DNA of 64,000 nucleotides from Alphaproteobacteria bacterium (GTDB taxonomy: Bacteria; Pseudomonadota; Alphaproteobacteria; UBA828). Both the position numbers and the translations under genes were made by a program. Shown here piece by piece: positions 3,161-51,012 of the stretch. The notes below the pieces were generated by a model that saw only the letters and a program-made list of their open reading frames with translations, did no database searches and was not told the origin of the DNA. How positions within the stretch are numbered: position 1 is the first letter of the stretch; each line of letters opens with the position of its first letter. The DNA lies in NCBI GenBank assembly GCA_965214705.1, contig CBDCCI010000002.1:1568001-1632000 (forward strand), in the 5' to 3' direction.

Positions 3161-3891
3161 TTGCCGATGCCTTCCAGGTACCGCGATATCGCCTTTGGTC
3201 CCGTAAGCACCCGGGTGAGTCGAGCCGTGGGCCGTTTCTTCGTCGGCACCCGCGCGGGGGCCACATCCATCGTTACGGCAGCGGTCGCGGTGATGTCGGT
3301 CGCAGGCTTTGCGTTTGTCACCGACCACATCTGGCTGATCGATCAGCGCGACGTGCTCAAGAACGCCGCCGATGCAGCTGCGATCGCTGCCACGCAGGAG
3401 ATGAATCGCCGGCTTATCCCCACTCCGGACATGAGCGAGGACGATCTGAAGACTGCCATTGCCCCCGTGGCGGAAAACTACATCAAGCTGAATCTCGCCT
3501 ATCTGCCGACTGACCGTCTCACCCGAGCCGAAGAGACGCTCACGGTGGCCGTCACGCCCGATCGCAACCTGGGCACGGTGGATGTGGCGACGACGGCGGA
3601 CCTCGGCGGCACGCTGTTCTCCCGGCATCTGCCGATCCTCAGCAACTACAAAGGGCCTGCAAAGGTCGGCATCCGTGCCGGCGTCGAGACCAGGGTGACA
3701 CCCGTCGAGGCCGTGCTCGCCATCGACGTGAGCATATCCATGCTAGCCAAGCTGGACGGAGGATTTCCGGACAAGGATATGAATGAGAAGAGCCGCATGG
3801 ACATCGTCAAGGACGCGGCCAAGGCACTCGTCAACATCCTCCGGCCCAACGAGCACAACCGCGTCGCGATCGGCGTCGTGCCGTGGCACTT
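3161..3891 (+). pseudogene. TadG-like pilus/adhesin protein with vWA domain, 5' part (interrupted)
   Basis: N-terminal TM followed by LKNAADAAAIAA Tad motif; MIDAS AIDVSISM; breaks at IGVVPWH at the element junction. Confidence 0.85.
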
Positions 3892-4120
3892 GAACGAAGC
3901 CGCTACGCGGAGTTAGCGGCGTAGAGTTCATTCATTTCCGAGGCGTCGCGGGTGCCGTTTGTTCTGTGCGTTCGCTTCCCGGTTGCGTCAGTGGCGCTCC
4001 GCCCGTCGGGTGGCGGATCCCCAGCAGCCTCCCGATCACCAGTGGTTAGCATCGACCCCTGCGACGGACCGTCGCCGGATCGGTCCGGCGGCGCGCCGTC
4101 GCGATCCAGGGAGATCGATA

Positions 4121-4999
4121 ATGACCGGGACCGCGTGCGACACGAACACCGTCACCCCTCTTCGCCAGCGCATGGAGGAGCAGCTCCGCATCGCCAATCT
4201 GGCCGCGAGCACGTCCAAGGCCTACATCTGCGAGATCAAGAACCTGGCCAGGTACTACGACGCCTCGCCGGACGAGCTCGACGCCGAGCAGGTGCGCCAG
4301 TGGTACCTGGGGCGGATCGACAAGGGGCTCAGTCCGGGCACGACCAACGTCTCCTTCGCCGCGCTGAACTTCCTCTACATCGACACACTCGGCTGGCCTG
4401 ACCATGTCGCCGGCCTGCGCTCCCGCAAGAAGCCCGGCAAGCTGCCGCGCTACATGTCGGAGCAGGAGGTCGAGCACCTCATCCTTGCGACACCCGACCT
4501 CCGCCACCGTGCTGCCATTGTCACCGGCTATGGCGGCGGGCTCCGCATCTCCGAGACCTTGGCCATCAAGGTCGGCGACATCCTGTCGGAGAAGAAGCTG
4601 CTGCACATCCCCTCCGGCAAAGGCGGCACCGAGAGAATGGCACCGTTGCCGGACATCGTCATCCACTACTTGCGCGTCTACTACAGGAACATCTGGCCGC
4701 GTCCGACGAGCTGGCTCTTCTACGGCGTCTCGCTCGACAGGCCCATCGCAACGGAGACCTTGCAGGCCGCCTTCAGGAGGGCGCGCGACATTGCCGAGCT
4801 CGACCGCAGCTACACCTTCCATTGCCTGCGCCATTCGGCGGCGACCCATCTCCTCGAGCGCGGCGGCGATATCGAGGTGATCCGGGACATGCTCGGCCAT
4901 CGAAGCGCGAACACGACCCGTCACTACGCCCGCGTCACCGGCAAGATGTTCGAGGGCCTCGACCACCCGATCTCAGGCTTCGCAGCGTTGCGCAACTGA
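4121..4999 (+). CDS. Tyrosine recombinase with N-terminal SAM-like domain
   Basis: GLRISE (R), SGKGG (K), HCLRH, LGH, TRHY (Y); ATG at 4121 after RBS GGAGA. Confidence 0.93.
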   Translation: MTGTACDTNTVTPLRQRMEEQLRIANLAASTSKAYICEIKNLARYYDASPDELDAEQVRQWYLGRIDKGLSPGTTNVSFAALNFLYIDTLGWPDHVAGLRSRKKPGKLPRYMSEQEVEHLILATPDLRHRAAIVTGYGGGLRISETLAIKVGDILSEKKLLHIPSGKGGTERMAPLPDIVIHYLRVYYRNIWPRPTSWLFYGVSLDRPIATETLQAAFRRARDIAELDRSYTFHCLRHSAATHLLERGGDIEVIRDMLGHRSANTTRHYARVTGKMFEGLDHPISGFAALRN

Positions 5000-5005
5000 C
5001 GGCGC

Positions 5006-6247
5006 GTGGAGGCCGAACGCGCGGGCGTGGCGGAGATCTTCCGCCGCGCCGGCGCCGCTTTCCGTGAGCGCCACAAAGGGCGCATCGACGCCGCCCGGCT
5101 CAAGGTCATGGGCGCCATCGAGGCGTGCCGCACCGCCGTGCTCGGCGGCCACATGTACGCCTGCGAGGGCTGCGGGCGCGAGCATCCGCTCTTCAACTCC
5201 TGCCGCAACCGCCACTGCCCCACCTGCCAGGGTCTCGCCGCCAACCTCTGGAGCGAGGAGCGCGCCGGGGACATCCTGCCGGTGCCCTACTTCCATGTGG
5301 TCTTCACCCTGCCCAAGGAGGTTGCCGCCATTGCCTTCTGCAACCGCAGGGTGGTGTTCGACATCCTCTTCCGGGCCGTCGCCGAGACCCTGCGCACCAT
5401 CGCCGCCGATCCCCGCCACGGCGGCATGCGCATCGGCGGCACCGCGGTCCTCCATACCTGGGATCAGAAGCTCCGCTTCCACCCGCACCTGCACGTGGTC
5501 GTGCCCAACGCGGGCTTCGACGTAGACAGTGGCGAGTGGAAGACGGGGAGCACCACCTTCCTCGCCCCCGTCAAGGTCCTCGGCAGCCTGTTCCGCCGCC
5601 TCTTCCTCGAGGAGCTCGCCCGCGCCCACGGCCGGGGGGACCTGGAGTTCCACGGCACCGTCGCCCACCTCGCCAATCCCGGCGAGTTCCACGCCACGCT
5701 TGCCGCCGCCCGGGCCAGGGACTGGGTGGTCTACGCCAAGCGGCCCTTCCGCGGGCCTGAGCAGGTCTTCCGGTACCTCTCGCACTACACGCACAGGATC
5801 GCCATCTCCGACAGCCGCATCGTCTCCTTCGACGGCGAGACGGTCTCCTTCCGCCACCGAAAGCCCAAGGCGCCGGGGCAGAGAAAGCCGCGCTACGGCA
5901 TCGCCACCGTGAGCGCCGACGAGTTCATCCGCCGCTTCCTGAGGCACGTCCTGCCGGACGGCATGCACCGCATTCGCTACTTCGGCATCCTCGCCAACGG
6001 CTGCCGCGCCAGCACGCTGGAGAGAGCACGCCAGGCTCTCGGCGCCCTCGGCTGCGCCGCCCCCGAGGGAAGCGTGGACGGCGCTCGGGCCGAGCCCGAC
6101 GAAGAGCCCGAGATCGGCACCGCGCCCGTGGCCTGCCCCCACTGCGGCGGCGTCATGCGCCTCGTCCGCGAAATCCGCCGCCGCCATGAGCCCCGCTCGA
6201 CGCGCGGCCCGCCGGCGCTGCCGCCGACCCACAGGGGGAAACCGTGA
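5006..6247 (+). CDS. IS91-family rolling-circle transposase (Zn-binding + HUH/Y2)
   Basis: CEGC..SCRNRHCPTC, HVVFTLP, HPHLH (HUH), YLSHY (Y2), C-terminal CPHC. Confidence 0.93.
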   Translation: MEAERAGVAEIFRRAGAAFRERHKGRIDAARLKVMGAIEACRTAVLGGHMYACEGCGREHPLFNSCRNRHCPTCQGLAANLWSEERAGDILPVPYFHVVFTLPKEVAAIAFCNRRVVFDILFRAVAETLRTIAADPRHGGMRIGGTAVLHTWDQKLRFHPHLHVVVPNAGFDVDSGEWKTGSTTFLAPVKVLGSLFRRLFLEELARAHGRGDLEFHGTVAHLANPGEFHATLAAARARDWVVYAKRPFRGPEQVFRYLSHYTHRIAISDSRIVSFDGETVSFRHRKPKAPGQRKPRYGIATVSADEFIRRFLRHVLPDGMHRIRYFGILANGCRASTLERARQALGALGCAAPEGSVDGARAEPDEEPEIGTAPVACPHCGGVMRLVREIRRRHEPRSTRGPPALPPTHRGKP

Positions 6248-6509
6248 GACGCCCGCTCGCTTCGGCCCCGCGCAACGGCGCCAAAGCGCCGACGCACGAC
6301 CGAACCTGTCTCCGCTTGAGCCGGGCTGACAGCCCTCGGCTCACACCCCGCTCAGTCCTCGCAGCGTGCGCCCGCATGCCTGCCGAAAGACCGGCGCGAG
6401 CGTCGATTTTATGCGCAACTCTGCTGCCGGTGGATGCCGCCTGACGCTGACATCAGCGCACTTTCCACATAGCTCAACTTCGCCTCTCGTGGCCCGCGGC
6501 TTCGTTCAA

Positions 6510-6551
6510 AAGGGTTGGGCAGGCTCTCGAGAGAGAGCCTGCCCAACCCTT
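6510..6551. repeat. Perfect 19-bp stem / 4-nt loop hairpin at the element's right end
   Basis: AAGGGTTGGGCAGGCTCTC-gaga-GAGAGCCTGCCCAACCCTT; also present in copy 2 (40241-40282). Confidence 0.9.
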
Positions 6552-6557
6552 AACCTT

Positions 6558-16419: not shown

Positions 16420-16441
16420 GCTTCGTGAAGTGCCCCCGCCG

Positions 16442-18120
16442 GGGTGTGATTCTCGTATGGCGATATGCCAGTCGTGATGGCGCTAAAGGATATGGGCTGG
16501 TTCATTTTGGTCAAGCAGCGAGTGCCAGGACTTCGGTTGGGCTGATGTTGTCGTTAGCTGGTCCGGATCGGGCGTCCATGAGCGCATCCCATGCCCGGTC
16601 GAAGAGGCCGGATTTGATCAGGGCGCGGAAGGTCAGAACCGCCTGCCCGCCGTCGATCCGCCAGCGCATGCCCGAGCGTTTCAAGCGCTGCGCGACGAGG
16701 GTCTTGCAGGCCGCCTCGACCACACCCGAGCCGATGGCGATGCCCTCTTCCTTCAGGGCGTGGTAGCGCATCCGATGGCGGTGCTTTCGGAAGAAGGCCA
16801 GCTCGCGCTCGATCTCGGCCGGGTCCCCCTTTGCCCTGTCCAGGAGGTAGCGCAGTGCCCGGATCACCTTGTCGACGCCGCGGGGGTCGTGGCGCAGGAT
16901 TTCGCGGTGCTTCTCGAACCAGTGGCGCGCCACCGCATGGTCAGAGGCCACGCGGAGATGCTCGCAAGCGTGCCAGAAGTCGATGACCTCGGTCTCGGGC
17001 GAGAGGCTTTCGAGGAAGGTCCAGTTGTCGGCGGCCCCGTCGGCGACGGCGCCGATCCTGATCTTCGGGCTCACACGGCGGATATGGGCGACCTCGCTTG
17101 CAAGTTGCGCTTTCAGCGCGGCCTTGCCGCTCTCGGGCATACGGCCGAGATAGAGGGTCTTCAGCCGTTGGCCCTCGGCGTCGTGGAAGGAGACCGTGCC
17201 GCAAGAGGCCTCGCGCCAGCACGCCTCGGCACGGCCGTCCTCGCCGGCCCGCAGCGCCACCATGACGCCGTCAAGGGAGACGGACGCGGTGACCGCATCG
17301 GGCGGTATGCCCTGGGTTTCACGGATGCTGGCCAGCGTCTCCGGGGCGACGCTCTCCCAGTGCTCATGCATGCTCAGGGCCAGGCGCTGCAGCGTGCTCA
17401 CCGACGGCGTCATTCCGCCCATTTTCGCGAAGAACTCCTCCGCTTCACGCGGCGTACAGTGGCCCATCATCATCAGCCCGAGCTGCGCCGCCGGCCGCGT
17501 CAGGTAGTCGTCGATGAGGCCCAGGCTCTCGTCCACCGGCACCAGCGACGTGCTGCTCGCGCCGCTGCGATAGCGCGCACGCCGATAGGTCACGGGACCG
17601 AGCGTCGTCATGATCGTCTTCGGCGTCGCCGCCACCCGGACCCAGCTCTGTCCGTCGCGCTCGATCCGGCTCGCACCGTCGTCGCGGCTCTCGGCGAAGG
17701 CCCCAAGGAGCTTGCAACCCAAGCCGTTCATGGCGTCCCGCAGCCCCGTCTCAACCGTTTCGAACGTCTCGGCAGACGGGTCAGACCCAGCCTGTTCGCG
17801 ACAGAACTCCACCACCTGGGCGACCGCTTCGGCGACTTCGGCAGGCAGGCCCAAAAGGTCGATGGACGAGGCGATGAGAGACTGCGACACTGGCATGGGA
17901 ACGCTCCTGATGTTGGGTCTGATGTTGGGTTGTCGGCGCGGCATCCTACCGCATCTCGCGGTGCGGAGCGTTCCCACCCACCACTGCTGGATGCCGCCGT
18001 TGTGACAAAATCCGGCCCTGCACCGGCCGATTGTCACGAAAACCCGATTCTGGCTGCCTACGGCCACCCGCCAATCGCGCTAAATCAATGACTTACGATC
18101 GCCATGCCAGACCTACACCC
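16442..18120 (-). mobile_element. ISKra4/ISLre2-type (Mutator-like) IS, copy 1, 1679 bp
   Basis: Imperfect IRs GGGTGTGATTCTCGTATGGCGAT / ATCGCCATGCCAGACCTACACCC; TSD CCCGCCG (7-8 bp, ambiguous in the homopolymer); matches 42867-44545. Confidence 0.92.
16511..17896 (-). CDS. DDE transposase (UPF0236 / ISKra4-ISLre2 type)
   Basis: SLDGVMV, ADGA, DFWHACEHL, IGSGVVEAACK, RLKRSGMRW; RBS AGGAG before MPVSQ. Confidence 0.88.
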   Translation of the reverse strand: MPVSQSLIASSIDLLGLPAEVAEAVAQVVEFCREQAGSDPSAETFETVETGLRDAMNGLGCKLLGAFAESRDDGASRIERDGQSWVRVAATPKTIMTTLGPVTYRRARYRSGASSTSLVPVDESLGLIDDYLTRPAAQLGLMMMGHCTPREAEEFFAKMGGMTPSVSTLQRLALSMHEHWESVAPETLASIRETQGIPPDAVTASVSLDGVMVALRAGEDGRAEACWREASCGTVSFHDAEGQRLKTLYLGRMPESGKAALKAQLASEVAHIRRVSPKIRIGAVADGAADNWTFLESLSPETEVIDFWHACEHLRVASDHAVARHWFEKHREILRHDPRGVDKVIRALRYLLDRAKGDPAEIERELAFFRKHRHRMRYHALKEEGIAIGSGVVEAACKTLVAQRLKRSGMRWRIDGGQAVLTFRALIKSGLFDRAWDALMDARSGPANDNISPTEVLALAA

Positions 18121-40219: not shown

Positions 40220-40237
40220 ATGAGAGGCCCGAAGAAG
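40220..40237 (+). pseudogene. Severed first codons (MRGPKK) of the TonB-dependent receptor
   Basis: ATG AGA GGC CCG AAG AAG joins in frame to ACC CTT CTG GCG at 48532, giving the signal peptide MRGPKKTLLASLASLAAFVLLATNAVHA. Confidence 0.75.
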
Positions 40238-40544
40238 GTTAAGGGTTGGGCAGGCTCTCTCTCGAGAGCCTGCCCAACCCTTTTGAACGAAGCCGCGGGC
40301 CACGAGAGGCGAAGTTGAGCTATGTGGAAAGTGCGCTGATGTCAGCGTCAGGCGGCATCCACCGGCAGCAGAGTTGCGCATAAAATCGACGCTCGCGCCG
40401 GTCTTTCGGCAGGCATGCGGGCGCACGCTGCGAGGACTGAGCGGGGTGTGAGCCGAGGGCTGTCAGCCCGGCTCAAGCGGAGACAGGTTCGGTCGTGCGT
40501 CGGCGCTTTGGCGCCGTTGCGCGGGGCCGAAGCGAGCGGGCGTC

Positions 40545-41607
40545 TCACGGTTTCCCCCTGTGGGTCGGCGGCAGCGCCGGCGGGCCGCGCGTCGAGCGGG
40601 GCTCATGGCGGCGGCGGATTTCGCGGACGAGGCGCATGACGCCGCCGCAGTGGGGGCAGGCCACGGGCGCGGTGCCGATCTCGGGCTCTTCGTCGGGCTC
40701 GGCCTGAGCGCCGTCCACGCTTCCCTCGGGGGCGGCGCAGCCGAGGGCGCCGAGAGCCTGGCGTGCTCTCTCCAGCGTGCTGGCGCGGCAGCCGTTGGCG
40801 AGGATGCCGAAGTAGCGAGTGCGGTGCATGCCGTCCGGCAGGACGTGCCTCAGGAAGCGGCGGATGAACTCGTCGGCGCTCACGGTGGCGATGCCGTAGC
40901 GCGGCTTTCTCTGCCCCGGCGCCTTGGGCTTTCGGTGGCGGAAGGAGACCGTCTCGCCGTCGAAGGAGACGATGCGGCTGTCGGAGATGGCGATCCTGTG
41001 CGTGTAGTGCGAGAGGTACCGGAAGACCTGCTCAGGCCCGCGGAAGGGCCGCTTGGCGTAGACCACCCAGTCCCTGGCCCGGGCGGCGGCAAGCGTGGCG
41101 TGGAACTCGCCGGGATTGGCGAGGTGGGCGAGGGTGCCGTGGAACTCCAGGTCCCCCCGGCCGTGGGCGCGGGCGAGCTCCTTGAGGAAGAGGCGGCGGA
41201 ACAGGCTGCCGAGGACCTTGACGGGGGCGAGGAAGGTGGTGCTCCCCGTCTTCCACTCGCCACTGTCTACGTCGAAGCCCGCGTTGGGCACGACCACGTG
41301 CAGGTGCGGGTGGAAGCGGAGCTTCTGATCCCAGGTATGGAGGACCGCGGTGCCGCCGATGCGCATGCCGCCGTGGCGGGGATCGGCGGCGATGGTGCGC
41401 AGGGTCTCGGCGACGGCCCGGAAGAGGATGTCGAACACCACCCTGCGGTTGCAGAAGGCAATGGCGGCAACCTCCTTGGGCAGGGTGAAGACCACATGGA
41501 AGTAGGGCACCGGCAGGATGTCCCCGGCGCGCTCCTCGCTCCAGAGGTTGGCGGCGAGACCCTGGCAGGTGGGGCAGTGGCGGTTGCGGCAGGAGTTGAA
41601 GAGCGGA
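40545..41607 (-). pseudogene. IS91-type transposase, 3' part (intron-interrupted)
   Basis: PLFNSCRNRHC... as in copy 1, with a few substitutions (LEE>LKE, GTV>GTL, HRI>HRT, ARA>AQA). Confidence 0.92.
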
Positions 41608-42866
41608 GTGCGCCAGGCGAACTGGTGCGAGTGCAGTTGGTGAAAGTCCAACAGGAAGGAGAAGGTGAGCCACCACTTCCACCCCGAGTCATGGGCCGTC
41701 GCTCGCGAGGGCGAGGGTCAAGCGTTGACAGGGGCGCGTGTGGGCGGGGCTATTGAGCACCGAAAGAAACATCATCCGGGATGCCGAGGCTCTTTCGTTG
41801 GCCGAAGGTCGCATCTGGCCCACCGATATGGCGAGGGGGGTCTGAATCCCGCGGTGTCAGAGAACCCACGCACGTACGTACGCACTGCACCGGGACCTGG
41901 GAGGTCTCCATGTCATCCCGCTGAGTCGTGGCGGGAACGCTGAGGAAAGGAGGAGTCCGTAACCGAAGATGAACGACATGGAGAAATCAGACTCGGCCAT
42001 AGTGTGTGCTGGGCAGCGCCCAGATCAGGTGGGTTCAAGTCCCACTGGCGCTCGGGTAAGGGGCGCCATATCCAAAAGTGGGGGTAATTCCTCACTGGCC
42101 GGAGTGAGCCGATAAGCGAAACTCTAAACGGGCACGAAGCCGGAAACGGCGGAGACAGCCAAGGGAGGAGCTAAGTTGGTCCACTGTCGAAAGACAACCG
42201 GAAGGCAGGGTGTCCACCGCGAGGTGGAATCTGAAGGGCTTGCGGAGAAGTACCGGGCCGTAATCGAGGGGGCCACCCCATGATGAATCGGTCGGCCAAA
42301 GACGGGGCAAGGTCGAGCCGGCACTATGGCGGCGAAGGCGTTCTTACCCACCCGTCGCACCAAGGTGTTTGCGAGCGGCACGGTACGGAAGATCTGGACG
42401 TGACCCCAGGAGGGCTCGCCGCGTTCCCGGGTGGCACCGGGATAACGGACCCTATAAGCCGAAAGGCGAAATGGGAAAGGATGCGCGGCGAGCAATCGGA
42501 CAACCGAATAGTACCTGAAGCCCGGCGAAAGCCGGGTGACCGCGCGAGCGGCGGCCGTGTGGGCCGGGGAAGGCGGTTGGCAGAGGTGGTCGGCGAGAGA
42601 CAGCGATGAGTGAGTAAGGACCATGACGCGGACAAGTTCCTTGAGCGAAAGACCCGGACATCATGGCCCGAGGAGACTCATCGACTGGATCAACCCGGCG
42701 GGTGACAGGAAGGTCCACTCACTGGTGGACAAGGTGTACAAGCGGAAGAACCTTGAGGTGGCCTGGGAAAAGGTGAAGCGCAACCGGGGTGCCGGTGGCG
42801 TGGACGGAGAGGATTTAGCGGCGTTCGAGGCATCGCTGGATGCAAATCTCGATCGCCTGCACCGGG

Positions 42867-44545
42867 GGGTGTGATTCTCGTATGGCGATATGCCAGTCGT
42901 GATGGCGCTAAAGGATATGGGCTGGTTCATTTTGGTCAAGCAGCGAGTGCCAGGACTTCGGTTGGGCTGATGTTGTCGTTAGCTGGTCCGGATCGGGCGT
43001 CCATGAGCGCATCCCATGCCCGGTCGAAGAGGCCGGATTTGATCAGGGCGCGGAAGGTCAGAACCGCCTGCCCGCCGTCGATCCGCCAGCGCATGCCCGA
43101 GCGTTTCAAGCGCTGCGCGACGAGGGTCTTGCAGGCCGCCTCGACCACACCCGAGCCGATGGCGATGCCCTCTTCCTTCAGGGCGTGGTAGCGCATCCGA
43201 TGGCGGTGCTTTCGGAAGAAGGCCAGCTCGCGCTCGATCTCGGCCGGGTCCCCCTTTGCCCTGTCCAGGAGGTAGCGCAGTGCCCGGATCACCTTGTCGA
43301 CGCCGCGGGGGTCGTGGCGCAGGATTTCGCGGTGCTTCTCGAACCAGTGGCGCGCCACCGCATGGTCAGAGGCCACGCGGAGATGCTCGCAAGCGTGCCA
43401 GAAGTCGATGACCTCGGTCTCGGGCGAGAGGCTTTCGAGGAAGGTCCAGTTGTCGGCGGCCCCGTCGGCGACGGCGCCGATCCTGATCTTCGGGCTCACA
43501 CGGCGGATATGGGCGACCTCGCTTGCAAGTTGCGCTTTCAGCGCGGCCTTGCCGCTCTCGGGCATACGGCCGAGATAGAGGGTCTTCAGCCGTTGGCCCT
43601 CGGCGTCGTGGAAGGAGACCGTGCCGCAAGAGGCCTCGCGCCAGCACGCCTCGGCACGGCCGTCCTCGCCGGCCCGCAGCGCCACCATGACGCCGTCAAG
43701 GGAGACGGACGCGGTGACCGCATCGGGCGGTATGCCCTGGGTTTCACGGATGCTGGCCAGCGTCTCCGGGGCGACGCTCTCCCAGTGCTCATGCATGCTC
43801 AGGGCCAGGCGCTGCAGCGTGCTCACCGACGGCGTCATTCCGCCCATTTTCGCGAAGAACTCCTCCGCTTCACGCGGCGTACAGTGGCCCATCATCATCA
43901 GCCCGAGCTGCGCCGCCGGCCGCGTCAGGTAGTCGTCGATGAGGCCCAGGCTCTCGTCCACCGGCACCAGCGACGTGCTGCTCGCGCCGCTGCGATAGCG
44001 CGCACGCCGATAGGTCACGGGACCGAGCGTCGTCATGATCGTCTTCGGCGTCGCCGCCACCCGGACCCAGCTCTGTCCGTCGCGCTCGATCCGGCTCGCA
44101 CCGTCGTCGCGGCTCTCGGCGAAGGCCCCAAGGAGCTTGCAACCCAAGCCGTTCATGGCGTCCCGCAGCCCCGTCTCAACCGTTTCGAACGTCTCGGCAG
44201 ACGGGTCAGACCCAGCCTGTTCGCGACAGAACTCCACCACCTGGGCGACCGCTTCGGCGACTTCGGCAGGCAGGCCCAAAAGGTCGATGGACGAGGCGAT
44301 GAGAGACTGCGACACTGGCATGGGAACGCTCCTGATGTTGGGTCTGATGTTGGGTTGTCGGCGCGGCATCCTACCGCATCTCGCGGTGCGGAGCGTTCCC
44401 ACCCACCACTGCTGGATGCCGCCGTTGTGACAAAATCCGGCCCTGCACCGGCCGATTGTCACGAAAACCCGATTCTGGCTGCCTACGGCCACCCGCCAAT
44501 CGCGCTAAATCAATGACTTACGATCGCCATGCCAGACCTACACCC
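42867..44545 (-). mobile_element. ISKra4/ISLre2-type IS, copy 2
   Basis: 8-bp TSD GCACCGGG (42859-42866, 44546-44553); same IRs and ORF as copy 1. Confidence 0.94.
42936..44321 (-). CDS. DDE transposase (UPF0236 / ISKra4-ISLre2 type)
   Basis: Translation identical to 16511-17896. Confidence 0.88.
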   Translation of the reverse strand: MPVSQSLIASSIDLLGLPAEVAEAVAQVVEFCREQAGSDPSAETFETVETGLRDAMNGLGCKLLGAFAESRDDGASRIERDGQSWVRVAATPKTIMTTLGPVTYRRARYRSGASSTSLVPVDESLGLIDDYLTRPAAQLGLMMMGHCTPREAEEFFAKMGGMTPSVSTLQRLALSMHEHWESVAPETLASIRETQGIPPDAVTASVSLDGVMVALRAGEDGRAEACWREASCGTVSFHDAEGQRLKTLYLGRMPESGKAALKAQLASEVAHIRRVSPKIRIGAVADGAADNWTFLESLSPETEVIDFWHACEHLRVASDHAVARHWFEKHREILRHDPRGVDKVIRALRYLLDRAKGDPAEIERELAFFRKHRHRMRYHALKEEGIAIGSGVVEAACKTLVAQRLKRSGMRWRIDGGQAVLTFRALIKSGLFDRAWDALMDARSGPANDNISPTEVLALAA

Positions 44546-45718
44546 GCACCGGGAGTTGCGGGACGGTGAGTATCACCCGCAGCCGGTTCTCCAATGCCTG
44601 ATCCCCAAGGCGGGCCAGCCGGGGAAGTTCCGCCCGCTCGGCATCCCGACAATCTACGACCGGGTGTGCCAGCAGGCGCTGCTGAACCGGCTGGAACCGA
44701 TCTTCGAGCCGGTGTTCGACGATGCCAACTACGGGTACCGGCAAGGAAGGTCTGCCCATGGAGCGTTACGCAAGATATGGAGGGAACTGGACGAGGGCAA
44801 CGAGTGGGTTCTCGATGCGGATTTGAAAGACTTTTTCGGGTCCGTGGACCACGAAAAGCTCCTCGAACTCGTCAACCAGCGAGTCTCGGATGGCCGGGTA
44901 TTAGGTCTGCTCAGGCAGATGCTCACGGCCGGGGTGGTGGCCGACGGTAAGAGGCTGCCGACCGAACAGGGCACTCCGCAGGGCGGCATCGTTTCACCGC
45001 TGCTCAGCAATATCTTGCTGACCCCGTTCGATTGGGAAATGCGTCGTCGCGGCTATCGACTAACGCGATACGCCGATGATTGGCTGATCACGTGCCGCAC
45101 ACGCGGGGAAGCCCGCGCAGCACTGGAGACGGCCAGGCGGATTCTGGCAAAGCTGGGTGTGTCCCTCAACGCCGGGAAGACCCGCATTGTCCATGTCAGG
45201 CACGGGTTTGAGTTCCTCGGCTACAAGATCAAGCAGGGCGAGCGGCCTCTCCGGCTGTCGTCCTCCAAGATCAAGAGCGGGGTTCGCGGGGGAGCGCGCT
45301 ACGCGGTTCCGCGTGAGAAATCCATCCGGCACTTCAAGGACCAGATTCGCCAGCGTACCCGGCGCAAGGCTCCTGTCAGCACGCAGGAGCTGATTGACGA
45401 GATCAACCCGATCATTCGGGGATGGGGCCAATACTATTGCAAGGCCCACGTCCGCGGGCTCTTCCACCAGCTTGACGGCTGGATCGTGCGGCGGCTCTGG
45501 TCGCATCGTCGCAAGCGCTGGCGCAACGCTGGCTGGAAACAGTTGCCGGAGCGCAAGCTGATCGACGAATACGGGCTTGTTCGCCTGATCTCACTGGTTC
45601 CGTCCTTGAACCTTCGTTGAGACACCTTTGTGAAAGCGGCTTACGGGAAAACCGTACGGGCCGTTTGAGCGGCGGACGGAGGCTAGCCTCGCGGGGCGCC
45701 TCCTCCGACCCGACAGCG

Positions 45719-47158
45719 ATGAAGCCGGCGAACAATGGGGCACCTGCCCCGGCGGAGCCGGTGGAGCCAAGGGCCGAGCCCAAGGGGAATCTGGAAGGCC
45801 AAAGCACGCGCCGGACGCAGGACCGGGAGAGCGTGTCACAAGCGGCTGACCGGATACGGCAGTTTGTACAAAGGGAACCTGGGGTGCGTCTCACGACGCT
45901 CCTCCATCACGTCACGGTCGCTGCGCTGCGCTGGGCGTTCTTCGAGTTGAAGAAGGACGCTGCGGCGGGTGTCGATGGCCTGACGTGGCGGATGTACAAG
46001 GAAGGGCTGGAAGGCCGTCTCGCCGACCTGCACGACCGAGTGCACTCGGGGGCGTACCGGGCGACGCCATCACGGCGGGTGAACATCCCGAAGCCGGATG
46101 GCGGCACACGACCGCTCGGCGTCGCGGCCATAGAGGACAAGATCGTCCAGAAGGCTGTGGCGGAGATAATCCTGACGCCGATCTACGAGGCGGAGTTTCT
46201 GGGGTTTAGCTACGGGTTCCGACCCGAGCGTGGGGCGCACAATGCGCTCGATGCGCTGGCGGTCGGGATCGAAAGGCGCAAGATCAACTGGATAGTGGAC
46301 TGTGACATCCGCAAGTTTTTCGACACGGTTTCGAGGGACTGGCTGGTCCGGTTTCTAGAGCACCGGATAGGGGACAGGCGGGTTATCAGGCTGATTATCA
46401 AGTGGTTGAACGCTGGCGTCATGGAAGCTGGAGAGTGGCGTGACGACCTGCGGGGAACTCCGCAGGGTTCGGTGATTTCGCCGATCTTGGCGAACGTTTA
46501 TCTGCACTACGTCCTCGATCTTTGGTTCCAGAAGAAGTGGCGCAGCCACGAGGTCAACGGCGACTCGATCATCGTTCGCTACGCCGACGACTCTGTGGTG
46601 GGTTTTCAGCACGAGCAGGACGCGGAGTGCTTTCTGGAGGCCGTAAAGGAGCGGCTCGGACGCTTCGACCTGGAACTGCATCCCGACAAGACCCGGCTCA
46701 TCGAGTTCGGGCGGCACGCCATAGAGCGCCGCCAAGGCCGAGGGCAGGGTAGACCGGAGACCTTCGATTTTCTGGGCTTCACACACTACTGCGCGAAGAC
46801 CAGACGGGGGTACTTCATGCTGGGGCGCAGGCCGATGGCGAAGAGGATGGCCCGCACCCTGAAGCGGATCAAAGAGGTGCTACGCAGGCGGATGCATGAC
46901 AACATCGAGGATACGGCCAGGTGGCTGGGCAAAGTGGTGGACGGATGGCTGAACTACTATGCCGTCCCGACCAGCAGCCGGTACTTACAACGCTTCCTCG
47001 TCCGCCTAAAGCGGGTGTGGCTCGCCATTATACGCCGCAGATCGCAAAAGGACCGATTTACATGGGCCGACATCGACAAACTTAAAGCTCGACACTGGCC
47101 CAAGCTGAGAATCCGACACCCGTGGCCGGATCAACGACTAGCCGTCAGTTCGACCTGA
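45719..47158 (+). CDS. ltrA: Outer intron RT/maturase, intact, no endonuclease domain evident
   Basis: AAGVDG, IPKPDGGTRPLG, FSYGFRP, GTPQG, RYADD, FDFLGFTH, GWLNYY; alternative GTG start at 45833. Confidence 0.92.
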   Translation: MKPANNGAPAPAEPVEPRAEPKGNLEGQSTRRTQDRESVSQAADRIRQFVQREPGVRLTTLLHHVTVAALRWAFFELKKDAAAGVDGLTWRMYKEGLEGRLADLHDRVHSGAYRATPSRRVNIPKPDGGTRPLGVAAIEDKIVQKAVAEIILTPIYEAEFLGFSYGFRPERGAHNALDALAVGIERRKINWIVDCDIRKFFDTVSRDWLVRFLEHRIGDRRVIRLIIKWLNAGVMEAGEWRDDLRGTPQGSVISPILANVYLHYVLDLWFQKKWRSHEVNGDSIIVRYADDSVVGFQHEQDAECFLEAVKERLGRFDLELHPDKTRLIEFGRHAIERRQGRGQGRPETFDFLGFTHYCAKTRRGYFMLGRRPMAKRMARTLKRIKEVLRRRMHDNIEDTARWLGKVVDGWLNYYAVPTSSRYLQRFLVRLKRVWLAIIRRRSQKDRFTWADIDKLKARHWPKLRIRHPWPDQRLAVSST

Positions 47159-47235
47159 GGGAGGAGCCGGATGCCTTAGCGGGCACGTCCGGATCTGCGC
47201 GGGGGGAGCGGGGCAACCCGCTTCCCTACCGCGAT

Positions 47236-47414
47236 TGCTCGCGCCCGCAGCCCTCGCAGGCGTACATGTGGCCGCCGAGCACGGCGGTGCGGCACGCCTC
47301 GATGGCGCCCATGACCTTGAGCCGGGCGGCGTCGATGCGCCCTTTGTGGCGCTCACGGAAAGCGGCGCCGGCGCGGCGGAAGATCTCCGCCACGCCCGCG
47401 CGTTCGGCCTCCAC
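47236..47414 (-). pseudogene. IS91-type transposase, 5' part
   Basis: MEAERAG...CEGCGRE identical to copy 1 up to the intron junction. Confidence 0.92.
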
Positions 47415-47420
47415 GCGCCG

Positions 47421-48299
47421 TCAGTTGCGCAACGCTGCGAAGCCTGAGATCGGGTGGTCGAGGCCCTCGAACATCTTGCCGGTGACGCGGGCGTAGTGAC
47501 GGGTCGTGTTCGCGCTTCGATGGCCGAGCATGTCCCGGATCACCTCGATATCGCCGCCGCGCTCGAGGAGATGGGTCGCCGCCGAATGGCGCAGGCAATG
47601 GAAGGTGTAGCTGCGGTCGAGCTCGGCAATGTCGCGCGCCCTCCTGAAGGCGGCCTGCAAGGTCTCCGTTGCGATGGGCCTGTCGAGCGAGACGCCGTAG
47701 AAGAGCCAGCTCGTCGGACGCGGCCAGATGTTCCTGTAGTAGACGCGCAAGTAGTGGATGACGATGTCCGGCAACGGTGCCATTCTCTCGGTGCCGCCTT
47801 TGCCGGAGGGGATGTGCAGCAGCTTCTTCTCCGACAGGATGTCGCCGACCTTGATGGCCAAGGTCTCGGAGATGCGGAGCCCGCCGCCATAGCCGGTGAC
47901 AATGGCAGCACGGTGGCGGAGGTCGGGTGTCGCAAGGATGAGGTGCTCGACCTCCTGCTCCGACATGTAGCGCGGCAGCTTGCCGGGCTTCTTGCGGGAG
48001 CGCAGGCCGGCGACATGGTCAGGCCAGCCGAGTGTGTCGATGTAGAGGAAGTTCAGCGCGGCGAAGGAGACGTTGGTCGTGCCCGGACTGAGCCCCTTGT
48101 CGATCCGCCCCAGGTACCACTGGCGCACCTGCTCGGCGTCGAGCTCGTCCGGCGAGGCGTCGTAGTACCTGGCCAGGTTCTTGATCTCGCAGATGTAGGC
48201 CTTGGACGTGCTCGCGGCCAGATTGGCGATGCGGAGCTGCTCCTCCATGCGCTGGCGAAGAGGGGTGACGGTGTTCGTGTCGCACGCGGTCCCGGTCAT
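47421..48299 (-). CDS. Tyrosine recombinase (copy 2, intact)
   Basis: Translation identical to 4121-4999. Confidence 0.93.
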   Translation of the reverse strand: MTGTACDTNTVTPLRQRMEEQLRIANLAASTSKAYICEIKNLARYYDASPDELDAEQVRQWYLGRIDKGLSPGTTNVSFAALNFLYIDTLGWPDHVAGLRSRKKPGKLPRYMSEQEVEHLILATPDLRHRAAIVTGYGGGLRISETLAIKVGDILSEKKLLHIPSGKGGTERMAPLPDIVIHYLRVYYRNIWPRPTSWLFYGVSLDRPIATETLQAAFRRARDIAELDRSYTFHCLRHSAATHLLERGGDIEVIRDMLGHRSANTTRHYARVTGKMFEGLDHPISGFAALRN

Positions 48300-48531
48300 T
48301 ATCGATCTCCCTGGATCGCGACGGCGCGCCGCCGGACCGATCCGGCGACGGTCCGTCGCAGGGGTCGATGCTAACCACTGGTGATCGGGAGGCTGCTGGG
48401 GATCCGCCACCCGACGGGCGGAGCGCCACTGACGCAACCGGGAAGCGAACGCACAGAACAAACGGCACCCGCGACGCCTCGGAAATGAATGAACTCTACG
48501 CCGCTAACTCCGCGTAGCGGCTTCGTTCAAG

Positions 48532-51012
48532 ACCCTTCTGGCGTCTTTGGCTTCGCTCGCCGCTTTCGTCTTGCTGGCGACGAATGCAGTTCATGCCGGC
48601 TCACTCGCGCCCGGCCCGCAGATCATCACCGAGTACGACCGCAGCTTCATCGAGCGCTCTGGCGCCCAGACCTTCGGCGAGATGCTCGACACGGGCATCA
48701 TCCGCTACTTCTTCACCGGAGGGCGCGATCTGCTCATCCTGGTGAACGGGCGGCCCTACGCAACGACCGCGCACAATCTGGACTCCCTCCCGCTTTCGGC
48801 GGTCGAGCGCATCGAGGTGCTGAGAGGCGAGAGCCTGGGGACGATCGGCGGCCACGCCGCGGTACGTGGCGCATTCAACCTTGTGCTGAGGAAGGATCTG
48901 GACGGCTTCGACGTGCGCACCGTCGCCCGGCTGCCGAGCCGCGACGGCGGCGACGCGCGCCAGGGCAGCGTCGTATGGGGCGGCGCGATTGGCGACGGCG
49001 GACACATGACCCTCGGCGTCGATATCCTCGACCGCGAGGAGATCGTCGGCAGTACACGCGAGCACAGCCGCTCGGAGTGGGCAGAGGGCGGGAGCTTCGC
49101 CGAGGCGAAGAACGTGAGCGTCGGCGGCAACACCGTCTACATCTTCGACACAAGCGCGGGCGAGCTGAGAGCCGTGGCGCTCGGCGCGTGCGACCCGGCG
49201 CACGGCTACACCGGCCCGCTAAGCAACCCGTCGGGGATCGACTCGGGCGACAAAGGCTGCGGGTTCGCTTACGGCAACTTCTGGTGGGACAGCGGGAGCT
49301 ACGACCAGAGTAATGCAATCCTGAGCCTCGACCACCCGCTTGGAGAGCGCGCCGAGCTTCACGTGGACGCAAACGCCACGCTTGGACGCTCGGCGTTCCG
49401 CTACGCACCGTCGATCGATGTCTTCTCGATCGCCCCGAGCGAGAGCCTGCTCGACGCAATCAACGCATCGGCGCGCGAGGCCGACCCGGCGTTCGAGGCG
49501 ACGAGAGACGACATCTTCGCGGTGGGGCACCGCTTCATCGGCCATGGCAACCGAGACTGGAGGACGACCACCGAGGAGTACGACCTCTCGGCAAGCGTCG
49601 AGGGCCGGCTTTCCGAAGACCTGGGCTACGACGCCGAAATCAGCGCCTGGAGGCTCGACGGCTCGGTGAGAGGCGATACCTTCGTGGACGCCGAAACGAT
49701 CGGGCAAGAGATCGAGGCAGGAAGGTACGACCTGACCGATCCACTGTCGATGGAGACGGACCACCTGAGAGCGATCGAGAGGAGCAGCCTGCGCGAGGAG
49801 GAGGACTTCGGCGGGAGGTATCTGGGCGCGCGTCTTGCGCTCGAGGGGGCCGGTCCGGGCATCGGCGGGCGCGACACGGCATGGACTGCGGGGGTCGAAC
49901 TCGCCGACGTGGAGGCCCACAGACTGCTGGCGTTCCGGGCGAGCGACGGCCGGACCCGCGACGTGAACGGGGTGCTCGGGTCGGGCGGCACCAGCTACGC
50001 CGGCGAGCGCGAGGCGGCAGGGGCCTTCGCCGAGGTGTCCCTGCCCCTCGCCGACGCCGTGGACGTGAGAGCCGCGGCACGGGCGGACGAGTACGACGAC
50101 GTCGGCGGGCTGCGTGCGTGGCGCCTCGGGGCCGAATACAGTCCGAGCGACATCGTGACGCTGCGCGGCTCGTGGAGCACGGGCGACCAAGCGCCCTCGA
50201 TGCACCACCTGTACAGCACCGCTGCGCAAGACCACCCCTACGTCCGTTGCGTCCCGGAGAGCGGGCCGCCGCCGCGCACATGCGACACGTCGAACTACCG
50301 GCAAGTGACGCGCAGCACGAGCGGCAACCCCGAGCTCGAGCCGTCTGGATCGGAGAGGCGCACCATCGGCGCCGAGGCCCGCAGGGGGCCGTTCTACCTC
50401 GTCGCCGACTGGTACTGGCTCACGACCTCGGATCTGCCGGGGCAGCACGATGCCACCTGGGCGATGCTGAATTACCCCGAGTGCCCGCCGGGCGGTGGCG
50501 GCAACTGCATCGGGCGCGCGGCCGGAGACATCACCATCCACGACAACTTCGCGAATATCGTCGAGATCGAAATCTCGGGGGTCAACACCCGGTTCGGGGC
50601 CCGCGCGGAGACCGACTGGGGCTTCGTCGCATTGCGCGGATTCTGGCGCTATGTGGCCAGCAGCGAGGAGCGCATCGCAGGCGACGAGCAGCCGTACCCG
50701 CTCCCGCGCAACGCCGTGCGCATCGTGACCTCGGCCGGGCGCGGCGACCTCACCGCCCTCTGGGCCGTCAACTACCGTGATGAGATCGAGAACCAGCGGG
50801 GCGATGGACGGTTCAAATCCTGGATCGGCCACGACCTGACGCTCGACTGGAGAGCGCCGATTGGCCTCGAAGACACGCGGTTAACCGCGGGCGTGTACAA
50901 CGTCACCGACGCGAAGCTCTCCACGAACACCGCGAACCCCTCCTTTACCGACGGGCCGCGCGCAGCCGGCTGGGGGCGCACCTTCTTCCTCACATTCAAC
51001 ATGATGTTCTGA
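48532..51012 (+). pseudogene. TonB-dependent receptor, main body (5' end severed; possible TTG restart at 48547)
   Basis: Plug motifs LILVNGR, LSAVERIEVLR; GNPELEP; GVYNVTD; C-terminal Phe. Confidence 0.85.

Follow-up and report, generated by a model that had tools for sequence, protein, structure and literature searches.

How does a single bacterial gene come to hold four mobile elements, one inside another, and does such a stack reflect a preference of these elements for one another or the load of mobile DNA around them? The locus that raises this question lies in a 64,000-nucleotide stretch (the window, G000:C3:1568001-1632000) of an alphaproteobacterial genome, G000, whose 7.92 Mb are assembled in three contigs with no N. 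At window positions 40220-51012, a gene for a TonB-dependent receptor contains, from the outside in, an insertion sequence (IS) of the IS91 family that also carries an integrase gene (E), an outer group II intron (O1), an inner group II intron (I) and an ISKra4-like IS (K), as read at base level together with scans of open reading frames (ORFs) and protein families. We consider it very probable that four successive insertions into the receptor gene produced this nest, in a genome undergoing a massive and recent expansion of mobile elements.

Results

Each layer has an empty-site counterpart

An initial annotation of the window had proposed these five layers in this order, with E splitting the receptor signal peptide at MRGPKK|TLLAS, O1 the HUH transposase of E at GAGCGGA|TGCTCG, I the outer ribozyme at CCATAGT|AGCGATG and K, with its target duplication, the inner reverse transcriptase (RT) at LHR|ELR. 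It had also suggested that the layers be deleted in silico and the restored alleles compared with relatives or with the same metagenome. The layers, their order and every boundary hold at base level, and on deletion each layer (K in I, I in O1, O1 in E, E in the receptor gene) has a matching empty site. A single refinement concerns I, the boundary of which stands but which lies, more precisely, in domain IV of the outer intron, inside the first 12 RT codons. Chance can be set aside, as all the layers are repeated elements whose ends are defined. The insertions had also been described as mechanistically different in all four cases; from family membership we infer three mechanisms, i.e., rolling-circle transposition of the IS91 type, group II intron retrohoming (twice) and DDE transposition.

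E interrupts the signal peptide codons of the receptor gene

The start codon of the receptor and its first 5 2/3 codons (MRGPKK...) are at 40220-40236 on the forward strand, where the upstream region and start align with those of the orthologue at 83-92% identity. The remainder of the gene (48531-51012, forward strand) is otherwise intact and encodes the rest of the signal peptide, the plug and the beta-barrel, with scores above the respective cut-offs for Pfam TonB_dep_Rec_b-barrel (74.7 bits) and Plug (27.9 bits). The closest orthologue is uninterrupted, has no stops and shares 96% amino-acid identity over residues 1-821. Removal of E yields ATG AGA GGC CCG AAG AAG ACC CTT..., which reads MRGPKK|TLLASLASLAAFVLLATNAVHA... 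and has the same length as the orthologous start MRGPAKTLLAS; the 6-nt spacing at the site is kept in the orthologues of four other species. The restored N-terminus, judged by eye and not with a predictor, shows basic residues, a hydrophobic segment and the sequence VHA|G, and is plausibly a signal peptide. Given that the rest of the receptor ORF is intact, the insertion of E is recent. As a first step, one copy of E would have inserted in the signal-peptide codons, antisense to the receptor gene, which it would have inactivated.

Both parts of E are on the reverse strand. The part distal to the integrase gene (40237-41607) carries a terminal hairpin (40241-40282) and the last 1063 nt of the ORF for the IS91-family transposase (41607 down to 40545; Pfam Y2_Tnp 183 bits, Zn_Tnp_IS91 58 bits). 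The proximal part (47236-48530) holds the first 59 2/3 transposase codons (47414 down to 47236; Zn_Tnp_IS91) and the ORF of a tyrosine recombinase (48461 down to 47421; Phage_integrase, Phage_int_SAM_4). A reference copy without inserts is present in the same window (copy 1; 3890-6555, forward strand), with the integrase at 3959-4999 and the transposase at 5006-6247. The transposase is an HUH/Y2 enzyme with Y2_Tnp and Zn_Tnp_IS91 domains and matches NF033538 at 382 bits (cut-off 125). In a self-comparison of the window, the stretch common to the nest copy and copy 1 (3889-6557, reverse complement) runs from 40235 to 48531, the distal part being 99.6% identical and the integrase-proximal part 100%.

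E is 2.67 kb long and exists in approximately 95 near-identical copies (96 left ends, 93 right ends, 66 uninterrupted copies) that add up to 250 kb of the genome. Its conserved termini, GGTTAAGG...GTTCAA, place the nest copy at 40237-48530; GGTTAAGG is present at 96/96 left ends and GTTCAA at 93 right ends. Outside one end are two variable bases (AA in 74/96), and outside the other a single one (G 48, A 28, T 14, C 3). Elements of the IS91 family make no long target duplication, have a subterminal hairpin and insert beside a GTTC/CTTG-like tetranucleotide. The hairpin of E has perfect 19-nt palindrome arms and lies 5 nt from one end. The other end reads, in transposase orientation, NTTG|AAC (N = C in 48/93 copies), so that TTG is attributable to either element or target; the spacing in the orthologues favours the element.

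Five copies of E (e.g., C1:3004269, C2:58739, C2:513217, C2:689571 and C3:1553280) have the same 30 nt outside the left end, and three other copies have another 30 nt in common there. IS91-type one-ended transposition can carry flanking DNA along, and the shared flanks may reflect either such transport or the presence of E within another repeated element. Copy 1 adjoins an ORF (3161-3916 of the window; 6558 onward) in which a weak match of the TadE/G type scores 21.8 bits and narrowly misses the cut-off.

O1 occupies a fixed site in the E transposase gene

O1 is on the forward strand. Its 5' segment (41608-42003) starts with GTGCG and comprises domains I-III, the start of domain IV and the first approximately 12 RT codons; Rfam RF02005 (group-II-D1D4-6) matches at 41643-41866 over the full model (1-225) with 172.1 bits, compared to a gathering score of 49. 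The 3' segment (45715-47235) contains the RT/maturase ORF, from a downstream in-frame ATG at 45719 to 47158, and domains V-VI (47162-47235). The protein scores 361 bits for TIGR04416 (cut-off 300) and has RVT_1 and GIIM domains, and the family searches that we ran returned nothing beyond RT and maturase domains. The ends of the intron, GTGCG...AT, fit the GUGYG...AY pattern. Deletion of 41608-47235 (5628 bp) restores copy 1 without an indel and with 4 single-nucleotide polymorphisms (SNPs) elsewhere; a deletion that begins at 41609 leaves one extra base (G). The junction falls after 59 2/3 transposase codons, in the zinc-binding domain. Because O1 is antisense to the IS91 transposase gene, it cannot be spliced from that mRNA, and this copy of E is inactivated.

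There are 7 O1 5' ends in the genome, including 5 complete 5' segments. The intron is flanked by E at the same site at 3/7 5' ends and at 4/4 complete 3' ends, and occupies only 3-4 of the approximately 95 E sites. The O1-bearing copies of E have different flanks and no private SNPs in common, suggesting that O1 entered different E copies separately. We also considered movement of E and O1 as a unit and rejected it: the one rare allele of the nest copy of E (6/92 copies) is absent from the other O1-bearing copies. In a second step, O1, a small group II intron, would have retrohomed to its fixed site in the zinc-finger coding region of the transposase gene, on the antisense strand, leaving that copy of E dead.

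A second element uses almost the same place. An IS110-family element of 1661 bp, X (L009 123-1783, G000:C1:39422-41082), is found at this and approximately 20 other places in G000, none of them in the window (21 5' ends; NF033542, 'IS110 family RNA-guided transposase', 174 bits versus 140). Within E, X has a single insertion position, which lies in the zinc-finger coding region, 10 bp from the O1 site. Sixteen full-length matches have both E flanks, several more are split by other inserts, and 3 of 27 high-scoring segment pairs are partial or have no E flanks. Two unrelated elements of families that are RNA-guided, X and O1, converge on the same 20 bp of E.

The genome also holds five units of approximately 576 bp (C1:421655-422230, C1:1859939-1860514, C1:1860610-1861185, C1:2635899-2636474 and C3:1789282-1789857) in which a 5' ribozyme part resembling that of O1 (69% identical to O1 96-396) accompanies a domain V/VI end that is likewise O1-like (92%, with CGCGAA at its end). 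Such units could derive from an O-type intron and have no ORF.

I lies at the start of the O1 RT gene

The inner intron spans 42004-45714 on the forward strand, starting with GTGTG and ending with AC, and genome-wide these termini recur 21 times on the 5' side and 20 times on the 3' side. Uninterrupted, it measures 2024 bp, and 11 full copies exist. The 5' segment (42004-42866) contains ribozyme domains I-III, RT codons 1-81 and the first copy of the duplication made by K; the 3' segment (44546-45714) contains the second, the rest of the RT/maturase ORF to 45620 (Pfam RVT_1 139 bits, GIIM 71 bits) and domains V-VI. Both halves are 100% identical to an intact copy (L026, G000:C3:371266-373289), which has one copy of the octamer and a continuous ORF for a 436-aa RT/maturase (TIGR04416, 384 bits versus a cut-off of 300). 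A putative exon-binding site 1 (EBS1), ACTATGGC at 42323, is a perfect 8-nt complement of the 5' exon end, GCCATAGT. In canonical group II introns, domain V has the catalytic AGC, a bulge of 2 nt and a loop of the GNRA type, and domain VI comes after it; the fold of I shows a domain V-like hairpin (AGC triad, AC bulge, GAAA loop) and then a domain VI-like stem. From its RT, its ends and this exon pairing, we classify I as a group II intron.

The empty site is well represented among relatives. In 6/6 O1-like introns (84-89% identical) of four sister species the I site is uninterrupted, ...CTCGG(C/T/G)(C/A)ATAGT|AGC..., and these introns read straight through it (e.g., MMNGMEKSDSAIVAAKPANNG), as does their RT ORF (e.g., MMNGMEKSDSAIV|AAKPANNG). 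In G000 itself, two uninterrupted copies of O2, a paralogue 71-74% identical to O1, have flanks that abut exactly at the site. Since the RT ORF runs through the site in intact introns, I lies in domain IV, inside the first dozen O1 RT codons, with the insertion two codons upstream of the in-frame ATG at 45719. O1 and I are both on the forward strand and the outer intron is continuous once the inner one is removed, i.e., the two form a twintron.

I homes to ...(C/G)(A/G)TAGT|A at all 21 copies. Twelve of them occupy the homologous position in the N-terminal coding region of four outer-intron lineages, and the other 9 are at unrelated sites with only ...TAGT|A in common. Species G004 shows the same arrangement (locus L028), a 91%-identical I-like intron occupying this position in an O-like intron. 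In a third step, domain IV of O1 would have received I, an unrelated intron that retrohomed there in the orientation of O1.

K is the youngest layer

K occupies 42867-44545 (1679 bp) on the reverse strand, with a transposase ORF at 42936-44492, 23-nt imperfect terminal inverted repeats (42867-42889 and 44523-44545) and an 8-bp target duplication, GCACCGGG, at 42859-42866 and 44546-44553. Without K, the ORF of I reads ...LDRLHRELRDGEY..., as in the intact copy on contig C3. The genome has 26 K 5' ends and 22 full copies; of the latter, 19 are flanked by a perfect 8-bp repeat, one by 9 bp, one by 7 bp and one by none. A second copy in the window (16442-18120, forward strand) is 100% identical and has a 7-bp flanking repeat, CCCGCCG; in the self-comparison, the identity extends one base further, from 42866 to 44545 and from 16441 to 18120. 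The insertion of K in I is unique to this locus, which makes K the last to arrive. In this fourth step, K, a predicted DDE element, would have transposed into the RT ORF of I and produced the duplication.

Some family assignments are less firm

Several observations weigh against these assignments. For O1, domain V/VI matches RF00029 at 36.1 bits (E 2.8e-4), under the gathering score of 40, albeit at full length and up to the final base of the intron. When exon pairing was sought with exact and wobble matching, the best candidate was weak, an EBS1 of 6 nt that includes two G-U pairs and lies in a loop of domain I. Class C (IIC) group II introns target hairpins, and none stood out upstream of the O1 site (z 0.87 and -1.23). 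For I, Rfam finds no match at curated thresholds (best RF02001, D1D4-3, 21.4 bits versus a gathering score of 32), RF00029 gave no domain V match at E up to 1, and the domain V described above was read by eye from the minimum free energy fold of 45615-45714 (z -2.6). The K transposase matches NCBIfam NF033572 (ISKra4) as its best hit and at full length (14-420 of 422, E 2.7e-49), with 168.4 bits against a cut-off of 205; because the score is below this cut-off, we call K ISKra4-like.

The genome is rich in repeats and in comparable nests

The earlier reading had regarded such a stack as rare, a claim that fails within this genome. With repeats defined by a minimum copy length of 200 bp and a minimum identity of 90%, 27.2% of G000 is present in two or more copies and 15.2% in five or more. 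All five complete O1 copies carry I, and in 4 of these the I copy carries further insertions. Similar or deeper nests exist at three or more other loci: C1:790114-796902 and C3:2982884-2993820 resemble the one reported here. A deeper one (L010, G000:C1:4021500-4039000; nest at C1:4022019-4038505) has E with the IS110-family element and O1 side by side; its O1 contains I, which contains K together with IS1595-like and IS630-like transposase genes and a glycosyltransferase-25 fragment, and a separate 2-kb insert with no family hit lies in the O1 RT ORF. Multiplication of the observed frequencies, a rough estimate made post hoc, gives approximately 0.6 nests of the type E>O1>I>K per genome, compared to two seen.

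G000 is the largest of 21 genomes searched in the genus, the others having 2.8-6.3 Mb. Near-identical copies of E, I and K were seen only in G000, with relatives of 73-91% identity in G004, G005, G012, G013, G015, G017 and G018; these genus-wide DNA searches, with 14-16 candidates scored per genome, show presence and not copy number. Elsewhere in the window, a perfect 110-bp tandem duplication lies at 2673-2891 (2673-2782 = 2782-2891).

Discussion

Nest depth and the order of arrival

Because O1 has its fixed site in E, and I has one in O-type introns, nests of this kind are to be expected, and they do occur. It is therefore highly likely that the depth of the nest follows from the abundance of the elements and their homing specificity, and that no special property of the locus is needed.

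Fewer than four events would suffice if composites were mobile, i.e., if the O1::I twintron had retrohomed as one unit or E::O1::I had transposed as one. One argument for this is also a point against our own account, in that no O1 copy without I exists in this genome (0/5), the 5 complete copies all carrying it at the same site; on this ground we can only infer that the two introns arrived separately at the locus. The O1 copies are 99.7-100% identical to one another and the I copies 99.6-100%, so near to identity that the order of O1 and I cannot be read from their divergence, and composite mobility is one of two routes discussed for the twintrons of Thermosynechococcus elongatus (PMC2882425). 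On the other side, I has independently entered at least four outer-intron lineages in addition to the O-like intron of another species, which makes re-invasion of a freshly homed O1 plausible. With I in place, moreover, the O1 RT has no access to its first 12 codons unless I is spliced out first. The different flanks of the O1-bearing E copies and the absence of shared private SNPs argue against transposition of E::O1::I as a unit. Overall, we regard composite mobility as possible though somewhat improbable; in our account, the order of the second and third steps is an interpretation, and the twintron may have arrived as a unit.

Do the elements seek each other out?

The initial annotation had suggested that each element uses the previous one as a safe haven. 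In its strong form, each element would have evolved a preference for the one beneath it, and the nest would be a structured hierarchy of parasites on parasites and not an accident of abundance. O1, I and the IS110-family element each target other mobile elements with strict site specificity, and homing to a conserved site in mobile DNA is a known strategy (PMC2882425, PMC3522654, PMC4424553). For K, the pertinent observation is that 4 of 26 copies lie in I, at four different positions, when 0.13 are expected from the 0.52% of the genome that I makes up (Poisson P 1.2e-5; 1.7e-3 if only repeats are permissible targets). Furthermore, a 3350-bp element interrupts an I-like intron of species G004 (L027, G004:C1:5280500-5292500), where it is bordered by an 8-bp duplication; its inverted repeats are K-like, its transposase is ISKra4-like, and an IS66-family transposase gene lies within it.

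Other data point the opposite way. E sits in a functional-looking gene, which it destroys and which offers no haven, and O1 fills only a few of the E sites available to it. A general bias of K towards repeats was rejected, as 14 of 50 K ends (28%) fall in repeats compared to 27.2% of the genome (P = 0.50), and no copy of K lies in E (0.8 expected). The excess in I was spotted post hoc and lacks a mechanism. The safe-haven idea thus stands for both introns, in the sense already described for group II introns, and does not stand for E or for K overall; as a rule that applies layer by layer, we consider it unlikely. If the preference of K for I were true, it would mean that a DDE transposase recognises, in place of a sequence motif, some feature of group II intron DNA or of the intermediates of retrohoming.

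A broader version would take the nest as a slice of a stable, multi-tier 'food chain', in which E feeds O1 and the IS110-family element, O-type introns feed I, and I feeds ISKra4-like elements in at least two species. Such a chain, of which we are decidedly doubtful, might have consequences for the introns, since the position of I at the N-terminus of the outer RT may make expression of that RT depend on inner splicing.

Could the nest be an assembly artefact?

That the nest is a false path through near-identical repeats is extremely improbable: all the layers are multi-copy repeats (99.6% identity or more) and no spanning read was found among the data examined, but the path is perfectly symmetrical, with both halves of each element in order and orientation, the 8-bp duplication around K and the excision of O1 are exact, the receptor is restored in frame at orthologue length, the genome has three contigs with no N, and nests like this one are present in another species and at three other loci of G000. 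Six sequencing runs contained at least half of the sampled words, and 4 were examined as short-read contigs (Logan), which break at repeat boundaries. The joined empty forms 41607>47236 and 42858>44546 are present in contigs of 4/4 runs, as expected from the other copies. A point to set against the nest is that none of the listed contigs spans the junctions unique to the locus (receptor|E and I|K), so that the assembly path rests on internal consistency; the contigs neither confirm nor question it. Summed contig depths of approximately 100 (E) : 20 (I, K) : 5-8 (O1) : 1 (flanks) are not copy numbers and were not used as evidence. In one run labelled as a different organism (X18), a contig joins 39999 to 48595 with unknown letters between them and differs at 48625 and 48628; it may represent an uninterrupted, diverged receptor allele.

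What the locus offers

By itself, the nest leaves current understanding unchanged. The locus is a clean and fully resolvable example of nesting depth in a bacterial chromosome, with an empty-site control for each layer. Its main value is as an entry to a genome with 27% repeats, approximately 95 copies of an IS91+integrase element and several group II intron lineages that home into one another. This genome provides a natural system for asking whether twintrons move as units or re-form by re-invasion, what an inner-intron insertion at the RT start does to the outer intron, and whether some IS families preferentially hit introns.

Comparison with known systems

The gene pair of E has counterparts elsewhere. 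In 2/2 plasmid records examined (Skermanella rosea pSR-1 and Mesorhizobium sp. L-2-11), an integrase and a transposase gene are present in the same order and orientation, and in both, as in E, the integrase stop is 3 nt before the transposase start. The matches are approximately 67-68% identical and confined to the transposase-coding part, covering 36-39% of the query. Unlike these pairs, E has undergone a large expansion, with its many copies in one genome. ISfinder lists an IS91 subgroup with an upstream tyrosine recombinase gene; our literature search on IS91 with a tyrosine recombinase returned nothing relevant. A limited search likewise retrieved no description of an intron in an IS91-family transposase gene, and we make no claim that none is in print. 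RmInt1 is reportedly another group II intron with an IS target.

As the initial annotation had correctly pointed out, twintrons and introns in IS elements have been described before, as have IS elements in intron ORFs, e.g., in Thermosynechococcus. The twintrons TeI4::TeI3 and TeI4g::ISEL2f of T. elongatus (Mohr, Ghanem and Lambowitz 2010, PMC2882425) resemble the present case in that the inner intron lies in domain IV, between the first two in-frame starts of the outer RT ORF, one intron ORF was hit by an IS, some introns home to a conserved IS site, and proliferation took place within one genome. They differ in three respects: here the inner intron encodes its own RT and did not arise from the outer one by deletion, the IS acting as host is of the IS91+integrase type and was entered in antisense, and all three relationships are stacked at one locus in a chromosomal gene.

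The nested introns of Methanosarcina acetivorans (as summarised by Zimmerly and Semper 2015, PMC4424553) are similar with respect to repeated site-specific homing of intron into intron, the depth of up to five layers and the perpetual homing site that a nest provides. Those nests consist of introns only and have no coding flanking exons, whereas the present stack combines elements of three mechanistic kinds, with a receptor gene interrupted by the outermost. The E.c.I4 intron homes into IS3-family transposase genes, in IS629, IS911, ISEc16 and ISEc31 (PMC3522654). As with O1, its homing site is a fixed position in a multi-copy transposase gene and occupancy varies among copies; the antisense orientation of O1 relative to the IS91 transposase ORF and its low occupancy set it apart. 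Trichodesmium (PMC4649490) reportedly also has a bacterial group II twintron in a genome rich in non-coding and mobile DNA. Each pairwise relation in the nest therefore has a precedent, be it the twintron at the RT start, the intron in a transposase gene, the IS in an intron ORF or the IS91 element with a tyrosine recombinase, and the stack as a whole adds a new and well-resolved instance to systems of a known kind.

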